Of a stretch of 64,000 nucleotides of DNA, positions 7,599 to 64,000 are shown one piece after another (positions within the stretch are counted from its first letter, which is position 1; the number at the start of each line of letters is the position of its first letter). The DNA comes from Escherichia coli (GTDB taxonomy: Bacteria; Pseudomonadota; Gammaproteobacteria; Enterobacterales; Enterobacteriaceae). Under the pieces are notes generated by a model. That model saw nothing but the letters and a program-made list of their open reading frames with translations. It was not told where the DNA came from and made no database searches. A program made the translations under genes and the position numbers. The DNA lies in NCBI RefSeq assembly GCF_024502345.1, contig NZ_JALDNN010000001.1; one strand, given 5' to 3'.

Positions 7599-8468
7599 TT
7601 TTGATGCCAGATCGAAGTTGCGCCGACTAAATCGTCCGGTATTAACCAGTTGCGCAACTTCATCCCATAACACATACAACCAACGCCGCCAGATGAACGA
7701 CTCCGCCACTGGCGCGCGTTGCAGGTAACTCCAGAGCAAATCTTCCGCCAGAGAATTATCCATTAGTCGGAACAGTTCGTATTCTCGCGGTGCCCAAAGC
7801 ATTAGTCCCGGCCCGACCATCGCCAGTAACTGATCGCTGCGCGAATCTTTCAGCATGCTGCGTAAACAGAAGTTACCGTGAATCAACACACAATTGTCGT
7901 TAAAGCCTTCAAATAATGCCGGGAGACATTCGCGAGTGCGAAACAGGATCCGCTTATCCTGCATCGTCAGACCGGTGTTATTGAACTGATTGAGCGTGGT
8001 CCATAGCACTTCAACATGTTGCCGGTACCATGAGGGCCAGAAATTTTCCTGAGTATTGTCGACCGCGCCGACGCAACCGCGACTGTCCTGACGGTGCCAG
8101 GCCAGTAAGGCTTCAACGATTTGGTCTTTAAGCTGTTCCCAGCGTTCTGGTGTTCGGGCTGGTGCCTCCACCGAAACACCACGCATCCGCTCCAGTAGCA
8201 GGACATCAGGGCCGGGGTGTTCTTCATGCGTCATCACACCATAAATAGTCGGCATACGGACAGTCCCACTTCTTGCCAGCATGGTGGTTTTCCATGCCAG
8301 TTGTCGGGCTTTTCCGGGCGTACTAAAGCTTCTTGCCATTAACGGCATTGGGTTTCCCTGGCTGTCATACAAAGCCCACAACGCCGTATCCGCTTTTTCA
8401 TTGACGCACTCAATACGACTGAGTTTTTCGCCCAGTAAATGGCTTAATTCGGCACGCAGCTGTTCCAT
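7575..8468 (-). CDS. ycbJ: Uncharacterised kinase-like protein YcbJ (aminoglycoside phosphotransferase fold)
   Basis: ORF track, 297 aa, MEQLRAELSHLLGEKLSRIECV.... Confidence 0.85.
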   Translation of the reverse strand: MEQLRAELSHLLGEKLSRIECVNEKADTALWALYDSQGNPMPLMARSFSTPGKARQLAWKTTMLARSGTVRMPTIYGVMTHEEHPGPDVLLLERMRGVSVEAPARTPERWEQLKDQIVEALLAWHRQDSRGCVGAVDNTQENFWPSWYRQHVEVLWTTLNQFNNTGLTMQDKRILFRTRECLPALFEGFNDNCVLIHGNFCLRSMLKDSRSDQLLAMVGPGLMLWAPREYELFRLMDNSLAEDLLWSYLQRAPVAESFIWRRWLYVLWDEVAQLVNTGRFSRRNFDLASKSLLPWLA

Positions 8469-8621
8469 TCAGATTACCCTCATAAAAGCTACTGCTTTCA
8501 TAATGAGCGCCAATATAAAAGATGTCACCTGAATGAGATCAATTGTTGAAAAGAAAAATTGAGGAAAATCGTAACGGTACGACACTCCTCCCAAAATTGG
8601 CTGGAGTGTCGTGAAGTGAAA

Positions 8622-9547
<926 letters not shown>

Positions 9548-9598
9548 AGTTCCTCCAGATGGATCGGGTTATGAATGCATAAATCTTATCATAATCAT

Positions 9599-10831
9599 TT
9601 ATGCGACGGGGTCTATTTCCCAGCCGGTGCGGCAATCCGTAAAGAGACCTTGCGGGCAGTGTCCTAATGTCACCCGCGTTGCCTGCTGCCAGTTAGCGAA
9701 ATCAGTAATCGCCTGACGTAACCCTTTTTGCAGCGTTGTCGTTGGTTTAATACCTTCCTGTAACCACAGAGAGATAACTTCAAGGATGCCTGTCTGGCGA
9801 TGCATTTTGGCATCCATTCGCCCAACTAATTGCCCACGATGTAATAACGGCAGAACAAAATATCCATACTGGCGTTTCGGCGCTGGGGTATAGCACTCCA
9901 GCCGGTAGCTAAAATCAAAAAGCTGCTCTGCGCGTTTGCGATCCCAGACAACAGGATCAAAAGGCGAAAGTACCGCGCTGTGCGTTGCAGTGAGCTTTCC
10001 GGCCAGCGCTCGCTCGAGTAGCGGCAGCAAATCAGCATGCAGCCAAAGATTGCCCAGTTTTTCAACATGCACAGCAATGATTTGCTGCTGTTCAGCCCTC
10101 GCTTCACGCCACGCCGCCAGTGCCGGACGTTTCAGCCGATAGTAATCTGCCAGCCACTGTTCGCGGAATATTCCCAGGCTACGCGCACTGTTATCCAGCA
10201 TGATGATTTCTGCTTCTGTTTGCGAAACGAGATCGCGCTCATCATCCCACTCAGGCATGACACGGTTGGTTAAATCATAAACGCGCTGGAAGTTGCGCCG
10301 TTCAATCACCATCACCTTTCCGGCAGTAAATAAACCTTCCAGATGCCGTTTATGCGGCTTCCATTCCCACCAGCCGCTTGCACCTTTACGAGGATGCTCA
10401 AAATCGGCTGAACGTACCGGCCCCTTATCATGAATATGCTGAATTAACTGTGCAATTTCCGCCTCATGTTCCTGCATCCAGGCGTCTTTGTATTTCCAGC
10501 CCATTTTTTCAGGTGCCAGCATGCGGTGGCGAATAAGACGAAAGTCGCTGCGTGGCATAAAGCAGGCTTCATGCGCCCAGTATTCCATTAATTCGCCACG
10601 CGCCAGAGACTCATCCAGCCACTGGGCAGGATAATTTCCCAGACGACTGAAAAGCACCAGATATGGGCTACGGGCAACAATATTGATGGTATCGATTTGC
10701 AGCAAGGACATGCGGGAGATCGTTGCCGGAATATCCTCCAACGACGCTCGACGGCGGGGTTTGTTTAACAGGCCTTGCGCGGCAAGGTGAAGATTACGCG
10801 CATCAGCAAGGGAGAGGTGCGGCAGCGACAT
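9599..10831 (-). CDS. ycaQ: YcaQ, winged-helix DNA glycosylase family (interstrand crosslink repair)
   Basis: ORF track, 410 aa; length and sequence match YcaQ. Confidence 0.85.
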   Translation of the reverse strand: MSLPHLSLADARNLHLAAQGLLNKPRRRASLEDIPATISRMSLLQIDTINIVARSPYLVLFSRLGNYPAQWLDESLARGELMEYWAHEACFMPRSDFRLIRHRMLAPEKMGWKYKDAWMQEHEAEIAQLIQHIHDKGPVRSADFEHPRKGASGWWEWKPHKRHLEGLFTAGKVMVIERRNFQRVYDLTNRVMPEWDDERDLVSQTEAEIIMLDNSARSLGIFREQWLADYYRLKRPALAAWREARAEQQQIIAVHVEKLGNLWLHADLLPLLERALAGKLTATHSAVLSPFDPVVWDRKRAEQLFDFSYRLECYTPAPKRQYGYFVLPLLHRGQLVGRMDAKMHRQTGILEVISLWLQEGIKPTTTLQKGLRQAITDFANWQQATRVTLGHCPQGLFTDCRTGWEIDPVA

Positions 10832-58156: not shown

Positions 58157-60103
58157 TTACTCTCGTGCCAGAGCATCTACTGGATCCAGTCGTGCCGCAT
58201 TTCGTGCGGGTAACCATCCAAATAAAATCCCGGTGGCCGTCGAGCAGAGAAACGCCAGCAGCAGTGCCAACGGTGAAAAACCAATCTCCCAGCCGGGTAA
58301 GAAAAGCTGCAAGGTGAAAGCAATTAACAGTGACAGTGTTATTCCCAACGCGCCACCGACCAGGCAAACCAGTACGGCTTCGATCAGGAACTGTTGCAAA
58401 ACATCGCTTGCTCGCGCACCTACAGCCATGCGAATGCCAATTTCCCGCGTCCGCTCGGTCACTGACACCAGCATAATATTCATTACACCAATACCGCCCA
58501 CCACCAGCGAAATCACCGCCACCAGCGTCAGAAACAGTTGTAAAGTACGTGTGGTCTTTTCAACGGTTTTCAAGACGCCGTCCATGTTCCAGGTAAAGAA
58601 ATCCTTCTTACCGTGGCGCAGTGAAAGTAAACGCGTGAGTTGCTGTTCCGCCTCGGCGCTGTCAAATCCTTCTTTCACCCTGACAGTAATGGAGTTAAGC
58701 CACGACTGGCCCATAACTCGCCCGGACATCGTGCTGTAAGGTAGCCAGACACGCAGCACTTTACTGCTACCAAACATCGACTGTTTTTCTTCCGCCACAC
58801 CAATGACTCTGGCGGGCATATTGCCGACCAGAATCACCTCGCCAACCACATCTGCTTTATGGGGGAAAAGCTGGCGGCGAGTATTACTGTCGAGAACCAC
58901 TACCTGCGCACGACCGTTCAGCTGCTCCTGATTAAAGGTGTTTCCTTCACTGAAGGTCATGCCATAGACATTAAAATAATCGCCGCTCACGCCATTGGCA
59001 CTGGCAGCAACATCAACATTGTTGTAACGCAGGCGCAGGTTTTGCGAGACGGCAGGTGTGGCTGAAGCGACCCACGGTTGTTTTTGGATGGCGATTAAGT
59101 CATCGTACTTCAGCGCCTGCTGATATTGCGGATCGTCATCGCCAAAATCTTTCCCGGGGTAGACGTCAATAGTATTCGTACCAATAGAACGAATATCCGC
59201 CAGCACCATTTGTTTGGCGGCGTCACCTACCACGACAATGGAAACCACCGACGCAATACCGATAATAATCCCCAGCATGGTCAGTAAAGTACGCATTTTA
59301 TTCGCTGCCAACGCCCGCCACGCCATCGTCAGCGCCTCGTTAAAACCGCTGACAAACTGCCGCCAGCCAGACACCGTGTTGACAACAGGTTCCGTCCGTC
59401 CAGCAACATTCACTTTTTCAATGGCGGGAGGATTGCGCACAATTTCGCCGTCGCGAATTTCGATCACCCGCTCGGCCTGAGCAGCGACCTGCGGATCGTG
59501 AGTGACGATAATCACCGTATGCCCGCGATCGCGCAGCTGATGCAGGATCGCCATCACCTCTTCGCCTGAATGGCTGTCCAGTGCGCCGGTCGGTTCATCG
59601 GCAAGAATTACCTGACCGCCGTTCATCAATGCCCGCGCGATGCTAACGCGCTGTTGCTGACCACCCGAAAGCTGTGCCGGATAATACTCTGTACGGTCTT
59701 CCAGCCCCAGTCGTTGCAGTAACTCCTGGGCGCGAAGCAGCCGCTGTTTCCGCTCAAGACCGGCATAGACGGCGGGTACTTCAACGTTCTGCTCGGCGGT
59801 TAAATGCGAAAGCAAATGGTAACGCTGGAAAATAAAGCCGAAATGCTCGCGGCGCAGTTGCGCCAGCGCATCGGCGTCCAGTGTGGCAACATCCTGACCG
59901 GCGACGCGATAGGTGCCGCTGGTGGCCTTATCCAGACAGCCGAGAATATTCATCAGGGTCGATTTACCGGAACCCGAAGCGCCAACAATCGCTACCATCT
60001 CACCGGCATAAATATCGAGGGTGATGCCCTTCAGCACCTCAACCTGCTCATCACCGGCAGGATAGCTGCGACGAATATCCTTTAATTCGAGCAAAGGCGT
60101 CAT
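58157..60103 (-). CDS. macB: Macrolide/peptide export ABC transporter MacB (ATPase-permease fusion)
   Basis: ORF track, 648 aa; Walker [10 protein letters not shown], signature LSGGQQQR. Confidence 0.95.
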
Positions 60104-61329: not shown

Positions 61330-62322
61330 ATGGTGAAATCGACGTCATGTATAACCATTGATTTCATGAATATGTCGCAGCTAACTGAACGGACCTTTAC
61401 GCCATCTGAATCTCTCAGCAGCCTGTCACTTTTTCTTAGTCTGGCACGTGGACAGTGTCGGCCGGGTAAATTCTGGCATCGCCGTAGTTTTCGCCAGAAA
61501 TTTTTGCTGCGCTCGTTGATTATGCCGCGTTTAAGCGTTGAGTGGATGAACGAACTTTCCCACTGGCCTAATCTCAATGTATTGTTAACGCGCCAGCCGC
61601 GACTGCCTGTACGTCTGCATCGCCCTTACCTTGCGGCGAATCTTAGCCGTAAGCAATTGCTGGAGGCGTTACGTTACCATTATGCGTTACTCCGCGGGTG
61701 TATGTCGGCGGAAGAATTCAGCTTATATTTGAATACCCCCGGGCTGCAACTGGCGAAGCTGGAAGGCAAAAACGGCGAGCAGTTCACGCTTGAGCTGACC
61801 ATGATGATCTCAATGGATAAAGAAGGTGATAGCACAATCCTGTTCCGCAACAGCGAAGATATTCCTCTGGCAGAAATCACGTTTACCCTGTGCGAATATC
61901 AGGGGAAAAGAACGATGTTTATTGGTGGACTGCAAGGCGCAAAATGGGAAATTCCACATCAGGAAATCCAGAATGCGACGAAAGCCTGCCACGGGCTATT
62001 TCCCAAACGCCTCGTGATGGAAGCGGCCTGTCTGTTTGCCCAACGTTTGCAGGTAGAGCAGATTATTGCCGTCAGCAATGAAACGCATATTTACCGCAGC
62101 CTGCGTTATCGCGATAAAGAAGGCAAGATCCATGCCGATTACAACGCTTTCTGGGAATCGGTTGGCGGCGTATGTGATGCTGAACGCCATTACCGCCTTC
62201 CAGCACAGATAGCACGAAAAGAGATTGCCGAAATCGCCAGTAAAAAACGGGCTGAATACCGTCGGCGCTATGAGATGCTCGACGCTATTCAGCCACAAAT
62301 GGCCACGATGTTTCGCGGTTAA
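61330..62322 (+). CDS. ybjX: VirK/DUF535-family protein YbjX
   Basis: ORF track, 330 aa. Start uncertain: in-frame ATGs at 61366 and 61372 (MNMSQLTERTF) are alternatives. Confidence 0.8.
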   Translation: MVKSTSCITIDFMNMSQLTERTFTPSESLSSLSLFLSLARGQCRPGKFWHRRSFRQKFLLRSLIMPRLSVEWMNELSHWPNLNVLLTRQPRLPVRLHRPYLAANLSRKQLLEALRYHYALLRGCMSAEEFSLYLNTPGLQLAKLEGKNGEQFTLELTMMISMDKEGDSTILFRNSEDIPLAEITFTLCEYQGKRTMFIGGLQGAKWEIPHQEIQNATKACHGLFPKRLVMEAACLFAQRLQVEQIIAVSNETHIYRSLRYRDKEGKIHADYNAFWESVGGVCDAERHYRLPAQIARKEIAEIASKKRAEYRRRYEMLDAIQPQMATMFRG

Positions 62323-63977
62323 TCCGCGCGACCGCGCGCCAGCCACAGCACGCGTGAGAACATTTTTTTCAGCAGCGTCGGTACGGAGTCCACACCACGA
62401 CGTCCGGCCTCCATTGCCACTTCAATGGCAAGATCGGGTTTGGAAGAGCGATGGATCGCTTTCGAGATAATTTTGCGCAGATTCATCGGTACATTTTCCG
62501 GGATTTGCGCCACGCGGTGGAACACATCGGAAAATCCCTGGCGATACATAAAATGTTCCATATCCAGCGCCGGTAACGCCGTTAAATGTTCTCGTTCGGC
62601 TTCCCGATCATTATTCAACAGGCTGCGTACCGTAGCGGCATATTTCTTCCCTGCTTCATCGCCATCGACCAGTACATGCCATTCAATCCCCATTCGCCGG
62701 GCAAATTTAACCAGTGGCTTTAGCCCGGACTGGGCAAACTCAATGACCTTGATCCCTTCGGCATCAAAATGATGTCCGCACTGACGCGCCAGTTCATTGA
62801 TAACCCAGGTTTCCGTTTCCCCTTCCACCAGCAACCAGCAGCGAGCAAACAGCGATGACGGACGATTAAAACGAATGTGAAAAGAGATGCGGCGGCTGTC
62901 TTCGGTGCTCAAGCCACTTGGCCCCAGACGCCAGGCGGCAACGCGCGAGGACTCACGTACCAGGCGGCAAACATGTTCCACTGGAGTTAACGAAAGCAGC
63001 TCGCCAGAGTTGGTGGTAGCAATACGTTGTAAAGGCAAAAGATTCAACAGATGCCAGGCAACTGAAAGCATAATGGGGTGTAAACGCGTTTCTGGATCTT
63101 CGATCAGCAACAATGGACGGGCGTCTTTATCCAGTCGCAATGTGCCTTTTGCCTGCAATAAAGTAGCAAACAGGCCGAGCAAAATAACCCGATACGAGCG
63201 CCCTCCAGGTCGGTCAATCATCCGGTTGATGATGTCCAGATAGCGCCAGCTTCGTTGCTCATTGCTGGCCCGCCGCCGCATTAAACGATATCGCGCCTGT
63301 CCAGCCCCCTGCTCAGAGAAATAATGCTCAAGCAACTGCACCATTGCGGAAAGTCCCTGACGAATCTGTCCATCAGAGAGATTTTGCGGATGTGAGGACA
63401 ACTCACGGGCGAGGAAATCGAGCTGGCGCGCGGTGACTTCCACATTGGGGACATTTGGCACCGTGCCGTTACGAATACGGCGCATAAAACGGGCATCACG
63501 CAAGCGCAGCACCGGCATTAAACGCACCAGATGGCGTGCCTGATCGTTAATATCCTCAACATCAATCGGATGTCCGTCTTTATCGAGAAAACTGCGCAGT
63601 GTCATCACGCTGCCGTCTTCCGCACTCTCCCCTTCCAGACGATAAAAAATACGGTGATAGCCATCGGTGCATGGCGTCCAGCACGCTTCCAGCGGCCGAT
63701 AACGGCGAACCCGATGTCGGCCTGGCAGCGATTCGCGGAAGGTCAAAATAATATGCAGATGATGTTCCCGACCGTTGATATCTCCCGGCGGGAACCAGAA
63801 ATCGTCGCGCTCAAAATGGTAGAGATCTGATTCTGGCGATAGCAGCAAGGTTAAGGCGTCCAGCAAGCTGGATTTACCCCACGCGTTCTCCCCAATCAGG
63901 ACGTTGTTTTGTTCCAGCATCAACGACAAACGGTTGATACCGCGAAAACCCACAATTTCAACGCGCTCAAGAATCAT
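62319..63977 (-). CDS. ybjD: OLD-family (overcoming lysogenization defect) ABC-ATPase/Toprim nuclease YbjD
   Basis: ORF track, 552 aa; N-terminal Walker A GENAWGKSS, D-loop/Walker B LLLIEDPETRLHP, C-terminal Toprim motifs LVEGETE and DGDEAG. Confidence 0.88.
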   Translation of the reverse strand: MILERVEIVGFRGINRLSLMLEQNNVLIGENAWGKSSLLDALTLLLSPESDLYHFERDDFWFPPGDINGREHHLHIILTFRESLPGRHRVRRYRPLEACWTPCTDGYHRIFYRLEGESAEDGSVMTLRSFLDKDGHPIDVEDINDQARHLVRLMPVLRLRDARFMRRIRNGTVPNVPNVEVTARQLDFLARELSSHPQNLSDGQIRQGLSAMVQLLEHYFSEQGAGQARYRLMRRRASNEQRSWRYLDIINRMIDRPGGRSYRVILLGLFATLLQAKGTLRLDKDARPLLLIEDPETRLHPIMLSVAWHLLNLLPLQRIATTNSGELLSLTPVEHVCRLVRESSRVAAWRLGPSGLSTEDSRRISFHIRFNRPSSLFARCWLLVEGETETWVINELARQCGHHFDAEGIKVIEFAQSGLKPLVKFARRMGIEWHVLVDGDEAGKKYAATVRSLLNNDREAEREHLTALPALDMEHFMYRQGFSDVFHRVAQIPENVPMNLRKIISKAIHRSSKPDLAIEVAMEAGRRGVDSVPTLLKKMFSRVLWLARGRAD

Positions 63978-64000
63978 ATCCCCTCCAGAAATATGTGACT

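Follow-up and report, generated by a model that had tools for sequence, protein, structure and literature searches.

Strong constraint on the Toprim core of YbjD, an OLD-family protein encoded in the core genome of Escherichia coli

OLD nucleases are usually viewed as mobile immune modules. YbjD (b0876) of Escherichia coli was the seed of the OLD census of Schiltz et al. in 2019, which reported 18% identity to Old of phage P2 and placed E. coli in Class 1, the class of single isolated genes (PMC6755086). Atahualpa et al. (2026), who proposed the name OldB, observed transcription of ybjD and found that the Keio deletion strain plates all 68 BASEL phages as its parent does, whereas pBAD-driven YbjD weakly lowers the plating of Bas18 and Bas20 and gives smaller Bas64-68 plaques; this overexpression effect is unchanged by removal of the Toprim domain (residues 1-377 kept) or by mutation of its acidic residues, is abolished by deletion of the ATPase domain and is retained, with higher toxicity, in a K35A variant (PMC13261556). 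The gene belongs to those of E. coli K-12 that still lack a physiological function, roughly 15% of the total according to a figure cited in the same study. Here we examine ybjD in a 64,000-nt stretch of E. coli contig NZ_JALDNN010000001.1 (assembly GCF_024502345.1; hereafter the window, to which all coordinates refer) and show that it behaves as a housekeeping gene across a bacterial family, under purifying selection that bears most heavily on the Toprim core. The only phenotype found so far ignores the best-conserved domain, and it is in this mismatch that the residual interest of ybjD lies.

The protein encoded in the window, 552 residues from an ATG start in the open reading frame (ORF) listing, is 100% identical to the E. 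coli representative of its sequence cluster (P0001) and has the same aqpZ-ybjD-ybjX context as the published YbjD/OldB; it is the same gene and nothing differs (PMC13261556, PMC6755086). RefSeq labels it 'ybjD: ATP-dependent endonuclease'. A first-pass annotation of the window, made from its letters, had described a frame with intact Walker A, Walker B/D-loop, LVEGETE and DGDEAG motifs and had assigned it to the OLD family of ATPase/Toprim proteins. The frame is borne out by the ORF listing, and all four motifs are intact where they had been placed (Table 1). The family assignment is upheld by domain hidden Markov models (HMMs), by profile alignment to Thermus scotoductus (Ts) OLD and by the AlphaFold model, which agree with one another; the Pfam matches, DUF2813 over residues 1-375 (E 2e-160) and OLD-like_TOPRIM over residues 376-440 (E 4e-16), are far above chance level. 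This interpretation was right but already published (PMC6755086, 2019; PMC13261556, 2026), and two of the three checks proposed with it are in the literature too; a search on b0876 and DUF2813 returned nothing beyond the papers cited here. What we add concerns only comparative and evolutionary observations: the distribution, inheritance and selection of a gene product that is almost certainly a stand-alone, core member of the OLD family.

The ybjX-ybjD segment is present in 5,424 of 5,426 complete E. coli genomes at no less than 95.9% identity, and the earlier placing of ybjD in the core genome therefore holds. In a scan limited to a single genome from each species, 166 species had relatives, and the best 80 matches, the loci of which were examined for synteny, are all from Enterobacteriaceae, full length and 80-99% identical to YbjD, with the gene always lying between hcp/lysO/aqpZ and (ybjX) macA-macB-cspD. 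Yersinia pseudotuberculosis has the same gene order and a YbjD of 65% identity. Full-length orthologues are also found in Serratia (64%), Proteus (56%), Aeromonas (45%) and Vibrio and Salinivibrio (42-43%), in the last two standing alone among metabolic genes. The identity of YbjD across species correlates with that of MacB (r = 0.92), LysO (0.87) and AqpZ (0.85), and its base composition is native, with a GC content of 53% against 51% for the window. This distribution is consistent with the vertical descent of a core gene and differs from that of typical defence systems, which are patchy and carried on islands; of the population traits of typical anti-phage genes (patchy presence, an island or mobile site, horizontal transfer), ybjD has none.

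About 90 contexts were examined, from E. coli, the 80 Enterobacteriaceae species, Yersinia, Vibrio, Salinivibrio and six distant DUF2813 genes. No partner gene is conserved beside ybjD in them, and no helicase, reverse transcriptase or toxin gene lies near; among the genes flanking E. coli ybjD there is no integrase, transposase, helicase or reverse transcriptase. The six distant genes, from metagenomic or genomic sequences, are solitary among housekeeping genes (for example, polA, cysS, yicC, yajQ and a ppsA-like gene), and no GajB-type (UvrD/PcrA/Rep-like) helicase, reverse transcriptase with non-coding RNA, or split AriA/AriB pair adjoins the DUF2813 genes in these contexts. The absence of a partner and of a mobile-element context, remarked on for the E. 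coli locus in the first-pass annotation, thus extends to the relatives of ybjD.

Nor did searches for mobile copies recover any. A tblastn search of 50,697 phage records returned only one fragment of E. coli DNA, with P2 itself unmatched. Plasmid-borne ybjD was considered and rejected: among the PLSDB matches (H15, H17, H18, H23 and H27-H29), several records, 4-5 Mb in size, clearly represent entire chromosomes labelled wrongly and the others are chromids of 0.5-2 Mb, so that matches in a plasmid collection are misleading for core genes. Two further public records probably reflect contamination or mis-binning: one named 'Chryseobacterium sp. 18061' (L040, CACSKA010000002.1) contains an hcp-lysO-aqpZ-ybjD-ybjX-macAB locus typical of Enterobacteriaceae, with 86% identity, and an 'uncultured Raoultella' metagenome-assembled genome (L016, CAAEVH010000004.1) carries a Citrobacter-like locus at 91%.

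Selection was measured as the ratio of nonsynonymous to synonymous divergence (dN/dS) by the Nei-Gojobori method and, from 29 phylogenetically independent pairs, as the corresponding ratio pN/pS. The dN/dS of ybjD is 0.009-0.015 among Escherichia species and 0.03-0.04 against Citrobacter and Salmonella, equal to or below that of macA, macB, aqpZ, lysO and hcp in the same pairs; for ybjX it is about 0.06. An alignment of 78 YbjD orthologues is free of gaps across all 552 residues and has 297 invariant columns. With a whole-gene pN/pS of 0.064, against 0.039-0.064 for neighbouring genes, purifying selection on ybjD is as strong as on its housekeeping neighbours. It is not spread evenly along the protein. 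The ratio is 0.069 in the ATPase domain (residues 1-377) and 0.067 in the C-terminal helices, but 0.036 in the Toprim core (residues 378-460), which is the most constrained segment of YbjD (Toprim versus ATPase, Fisher p = 1.8e-5). Selection thus guards most strongly the very domain that the published phenotype can do without.

The same emphasis is seen in the wider family. HMMER was run exhaustively against 1.84 billion cluster representatives and returned 1,979 clusters at E <= 1e-3, of which 335 reached E <= 1e-30, with members of the DUF2813 clade in Vibrio, Motilimonas, Chitinilyticum, Acidobacteriota and Anaerobiospirillum, and 68 DUF2813 sequences, down to about 30% identity, were aligned. 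Glu385, Gly386, Glu387, Glu389, Asp440, Glu474, Lys513 and Pro514 are invariant, and Asp438 and Asp472 are each kept in 67 of the 68; the nuclease active-site set (Glu385, Glu387, Glu389, Asp438, Asp440, Asp472, Glu474 and Lys513) is thus invariant or nearly so across the clade. Alignment of the family-profile HMM to Ts OLD (PDB 6P74) pairs Glu385 with Glu377, Glu389 with Asp381, and Asp438/Asp440 with Asp431/Asp433, for which metal A and metal B roles have been defined in the Thermus protein (PMC7049728). From sequence pattern and position, we infer that Asp472-x-Glu474 supplies second-metal ligands as the counterpart of Ts Ser478-x-Glu480 and Burkholderia pseudomallei (Bp) Thr506-x-Glu508, and that Lys513, by its position and invariance, corresponds to Bp Lys562, with the role described for that residue (PMC6755086, PMC7049728).

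The ATPase domain is conserved less uniformly. Gly29 and Glu30 of Walker A are invariant in the 68 sequences and Lys35, which aligns with Ts OLD Lys34, is present in 62; the acidic residues of the Walker B segment are Glu293, Asp294 and Glu296, and the alignment to Ts OLD pairs Glu293 with Glu276, His300 with His283 and Asn323 with His310. The ATPase motifs that had been listed from the sequence are intact, as noted above, yet two that had not been listed are non-canonical. The H-loop position holds Asn323 in E. coli (Asn in 45 family members, His in 10, Gln in 7 and Tyr in 5), and the ABC (ATP-binding cassette) signature is degenerate, with a family consensus of GSGAQ, GGRSY in E. coli and variation within Enterobacteriaceae. 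These two features, of which we found no mention in the portion of PMC13261556 available to us, may explain why K35A leaves the phenotype in place. Some DUF2813 proteins are very long, at 1,046-1,867 residues (P0149, P0162-P0165, P0170, P0175, P0179, P0180, P0189, P0191, P0196 and P0206; a 1,187-residue form occurs in Anaerobiospirillum), with several hundred residues inserted between the Walker A segment and the remainder of the ATPase and with long C-terminal extensions; the insert resembles the coiled-coil inserts of SMC and Rad50 proteins.

The AlphaFold (AF2) model of YbjD is confident (predicted local distance difference test score, pLDDT, 83.7), its overall fold agrees with solved OLD structures and its best structural matches are GajA, Ts OLD and the OLD protein of Retron-Eco8. 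A helix at residues 458-464 precedes beta4, and three C-terminal helices follow (473-490, 500-527 and 534-548), the second of which contains Lys513. The C-terminal region superposes on that of a Class 2 protein (6nk8_B) at 2.4 Å over 164 residues, and the traits of Ts OLD in this region, namely no C-terminal helical domain, no alpha3-beta4 insert helix and Arg in place of Lys, are not those of YbjD. By genomic context, by contrast, the DUF2813 clade is Class 1. The classification by HMM that had been proposed for YbjD gave no clean answer. In PADLOC, YbjD scores highest with the GajA model PDLC00094, at 267 bits, and reaches 84 bits with the P2-type Old model. Each of the 68 DUF2813 sequences also matches PDLC00094 (best E-value 5e-129), although a PADLOC call of Gabija requires GajB as well; with the DUF2813 family profile itself, Ts OLD obtains 76 bits and GajA 75. 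These near-equal scores argue that DUF2813 is a separate clade and that the classes are labels of context. Judged from sequence and the modelled fold, YbjD lies between Class 1 and Class 2, a stand-alone OLD protein with a Class-2-like nuclease module, a placement that agrees with a published report that Class 2 nests inside Class 1 diversity.

On the basis of these observations, we favour, with somewhat better than even confidence, a reading of YbjD as a stand-alone core OLD enzyme, an ATP-gated nuclease with a native role other than the assayed phenotype; to the gating mechanism and to the separate native role we would give about an even chance. YbjD would comprise an ABC-type nucleotide-binding domain, similar to those of SMC, Rad50 and RecF, fused to a two-metal Toprim nuclease with a helical C-terminal bundle. 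The ATPase domain might mainly bind ATP and serve as a switch or restraint rather than a motor, as in Bacillus cereus GajA, a proposal suggested by the H-loop Asn, the degenerate signature and a K35A variant that is toxic yet keeps the phenotype. Once this restraint is released, the Toprim site would nick or degrade a nucleic-acid substrate through two-metal catalysis, with Lys513 stabilizing the transition state. The invariant active site and the low pN/pS of the Toprim core suggest that the function kept by natural selection requires the nuclease; if so, that function would not be the Toprim-independent overexpression phenotype, and plaque assays of overexpressed YbjD should not be read as a guide to native function. 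The native role is most likely to be low-level maintenance or surveillance of the genome or of RNA, performed alone or with unlinked host factors; that it is non-defence, or not primarily defence, we propose only tentatively, at a little under even weight.

Several points weigh against this reading. The nuclease activity, ATP binding and oligomeric state of YbjD are inferred from homologues, and the sole recorded phenotype is anti-phage and Toprim-independent. The gene is non-essential, and no deletion phenotype has been reported. Strong purifying selection would fit conserved immunity against other phages as well. The idea of ATP as a restraint is borrowed from B. cereus GajA, and Vc OLD and P2 Old need a functional ATPase. 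Upstream of ybjD, finally, neither a LexA box nor any other informative regulatory site turned up that might hint at a role in repair.

The convergent neighbour ybjX (VirK/YbjX, DUF535) meets ybjD tail to tail. The TAA stop of ybjX occupies 62320-62322 and the stop of ybjD is the reverse complement of 62319-62321; the two are interlocked in the palindrome TTAA and the coding sequences therefore overlap by exactly 4 nt, as had been read from the sequence at the outset. This arrangement is kept in 61 of the 62 Enterobacteriaceae loci with an adjacent DUF535 gene (56, plus 5 with two tandem DUF535 genes); the genes are 12 nt apart in Buttiauxella and 136 nt apart in Yersinia. The tandem genes lie downstream of ybjD in four Kluyvera loci (L071, L072, L073 and L080) and one other Enterobacteriaceae isolate (L067), and the proximal copy retains the 4-nt stop overlap; in L071 the two genes occupy 7656-8612 and 8797-9750. 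They suggest two DUF535 paralogue lineages, which would explain why, in other genera, 'YbjX' identities group near 48% or near 65%. YbjX, 45-75% identical outside Escherichia, evolves 3-6 times faster than YbjD, and at 18 of the 80 species loci (Klebsiella, Raoultella, Superficieibacter and some Enterobacter) ybjX is absent where YbjD is 82-87% identical. ybjX is not an obligatory partner of ybjD. Because most substitutions in TTAA break one or both stops, persistence of the overlap needs no regulatory role.

The 4-nt coding overlap does mean that the convergent transcripts must overlap, and ExcludonFinder lists ybjD-ybjX among the convergent transcript overlaps present in at least 50% of E. 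coli RNA-seq samples (PMC12288877). One could envisage ybjD and ybjX as a functional pair, either through their proteins or as an excludon in which PhoP-driven transcription of ybjX silences ybjD. We consider this improbable. In its favour, the interlocked stops persist at nearly all loci even where YbjX identity falls to 45-50%, no room is left between the genes for an intrinsic terminator, and ybjX features in titles from the PhoP-regulon literature. The mutational locking of TTAA offers a simpler reason for the overlap, and the species that keep ybjD without ybjX, the wide gap in Yersinia, the lack of a DUF535 neighbour in Vibrio and other distant members and the faster evolution of YbjX all speak against a joint function. 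Less probable still is a split Gabija, in which YbjD would act with an unlinked host superfamily 1 (SF1) helicase (UvrD, Rep or HelD) as a Class 2-type machine: the GajA model does match every DUF2813 member and the C-terminal region both superposes on a Class 2 one and carries a Class 2-type invariant lysine, but an adjacent helicase gene occurs in none of the contexts examined and the family profile is equally near to Class 1 Ts OLD and to GajA.

A conserved immune role deserves more weight, although we regard it as unlikely. Under this 'OldB' proposal YbjD would be a single-gene anti-phage protein fixed in the core genome, sensing infection through its ATPase domain and halting the phage, perhaps through abortive toxicity. 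The OLD proteins that have been characterised from bacteria and phages do act in defence, with archaeal Cran1 as the exception; the top PADLOC matches of YbjD are Gabija GajA models; and its effects on the plating of Bas18 and Bas20 and on the plaque size of Bas64-68 appear at a non-toxic inducer level. Yet loss of the gene at its native level affects none of the 68 phages, the overexpression phenotype needs neither the nuclease domain nor Walker A Lys35, and the dispensable domain is the most constrained one. The usual signatures of a defence gene are also missing: ybjD is near-universal in E. coli, outside any defence island or mobile context, syntenic and gap-free across the bacterial family, with a pN/pS equal to that of neighbouring transporters and no fast-evolving segment. 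Alternatively, ybjD might be a decaying, functionless remnant of an old mobile defence gene, as its non-essentiality, its silent deletion and a Toprim domain with no assayable role could be taken to imply. The selection analysis refutes this, dN/dS being 0.009-0.04 and 297 of 552 columns invariant over 78 species with no indels, and the gene, which is transcribed, keeps all its catalytic residues and has a strong Shine-Dalgarno sequence; we give the idea practically no credence. A stand-alone, Toprim-dependent enzyme with a native role apart from the assayed phenotype is the account that we retain.

Table 1. Coordinates of ybjD, its motifs and the adjoining ybjX in the window
Feature	Position	Strand	Basis
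ybjD coding sequence, stand-alone OLD-family protein, 552 aa plus stop	62319..63977	-	ORF listing, Pfam and RefSeq
GGAGG Shine-Dalgarno sequence, 4 nt upstream of the ybjD ATG	63982..63986	-	sequence inspection
ABC-type ATPase domain, residues 1-377	62847..63977	-	
Inserted helical region inside the ATPase domain, residues about 160-280, low pLDDT; corresponds to the OLD dimerisation insert			
Walker A / P-loop GENAWGKSS (K35), residues 29-37	63867..63893	-	sequence and family alignment
Walker B (E293) and D-loop (H300), LLLIEDPETRLHP, residues 289-301	63075..63113	-	sequence and HMM alignment to 6p74
Asn323 at the H-loop position (Ts OLD H310, GajA 'THS')	63009..63011	-	HMM alignment
Degenerate ABC signature GGRSY, residues 258-262	63192-63206		
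C-terminal region, residues 378-552: Toprim core and three-helix C-terminal bundle	62322..62846	-	
Toprim motif LVEGETE, residues 383-389: E385 (metal A), E389 (metal B), E387 also invariant	62811..62831	-	
DxD motif DGDEAG, residues 438-443: D438 and D440, metal A	62649..62666	-	
D472-M-E474, putative second-metal ligands	62556..62564	-	pattern and position, not HMM-aligned
K513 (invariant K-P) in the long C-terminal helix; putative match of the Class 2 catalytic lysine Bp K562	62439..62441	-	
ybjX (VirK/YbjX, DUF535), convergent neighbour	61366..62322	+	Pfam, RefSeq start
TTAA common to the interlocked ybjD (-) and ybjX (+) stops	62319..62322		

The gene order at the locus is clpA clpS yljB cspD macB macA ybjX, ybjD, aqpZ lysO hcp hcr poxB. 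The ybjD promoter falls past the end of the window, inside the 425-bp divergent spacer between ybjD and aqpZ (L001 8679-9103). The ybjX frame can begin at an ATG at 61330 (330 residues), and the RefSeq start at 61366 gives 318 residues (MNMSQL...). Promoter and terminator scans at the locus were not above shuffled expectation, with 8 terminator-like sites in the region against 4.0 +/- 2.1, not clearly more. A scan for PhoP boxes was at chance level (18 matches against 13.4 expected). A weak hairpin at 62246-62263 (minus strand), inside the 3' end of ybjX, is the only candidate terminator of ybjD, and a weak terminator-like hairpin at 62622-62639 (plus strand), inside the ybjD coding sequence, is a candidate end for the ybjX transcript. 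No Rfam structured RNA was found around ybjD at E <= 1. The macA stop and macB start also overlap by 4 nt (60100-60103, minus strand), an ordinary case of translational coupling within an operon that contrasts with the convergent ybjD/ybjX overlap. In uropathogenic E. coli given a cathelicidin-derived peptide, ybjD (UTI89_C0880) rises modestly, along with arnF, evgS and marR (PMC6737244); ybjX is absent from the gene table of that study, and the rise could be antisense read-through from ybjX if the RNA-seq was not strand-specific.

Set against the known OLD systems, YbjD resembles each in part. Class 1 Ts OLD is, like YbjD, encoded by a single gene and has the Walker B Glu, the D-loop His and Toprim metal-A and metal-B acidic residues that align with those of YbjD; it differs in a His at the H-loop (His310, where YbjD has Asn323) and in lacking a C-terminal helical domain, using an Arg where YbjD has a three-helix bundle with an invariant Lys, and sequence identity between the two is only about 20%. 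With GajA and other Class 2 proteins (B. cereus 8SM3 and 8U7I; B. pseudomallei C-terminal region 6NK8), YbjD shares the helical C-terminal domain and the Lys that is catalytic in Class 2, and the negative regulation of GajA by ATP may plausibly reflect a common logic. However, YbjD is shorter (552 residues against about 578-590), Gabija includes the GajB helicase, often in an overlapping frame, which the YbjD clade lacks in the contexts examined, and GajA resides on defence islands whereas ybjD is chromosomal, core and vertically inherited. Phage P2 Old, the archetype of Class 1, has the same two-domain architecture and is likewise a single gene, but it is prophage-encoded, only 18% identical to YbjD, kills recBC cells and cleaves tRNA upon sensing lambda Gam. 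YbjD is not prophage-encoded, and recBC(ts) cells survive it, giving no link to RecBC (PMC13261556).

The closest evolutionary parallel is archaeal. Cran1 (Sulfolobales OLD clade U11) is an OLD ATPase-nickase that is conserved and vertically inherited across its order, apparently has no antiviral role, acts in the cell cycle and is toxic on overexpression through its ATPase domain (PMC12796447). The evolutionary pattern of YbjD resembles that of Cran1, and the two differ in that Cran1 is archaeal, essential and cell-cycle regulated whereas ybjD is non-essential. By this analogy, the DUF2813 clade is possibly, at a shade less than even likelihood, the bacterial counterpart of Cran1, an OLD nuclease long ago domesticated to a Toprim-dependent housekeeping role, for example, in processing DNA nicks or gaps, maintaining the chromosome or cleaving RNA. 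Domestication would then have preceded the divergence of Enterobacteriaceae and Yersiniaceae, and possibly the split of Vibrionales, and the anti-phage phenotype would be a side effect that the ATPase domain has when overexpressed. As a precedent for a vertically inherited OLD protein outside defence, Cran1 supports the reading of YbjD favoured here.

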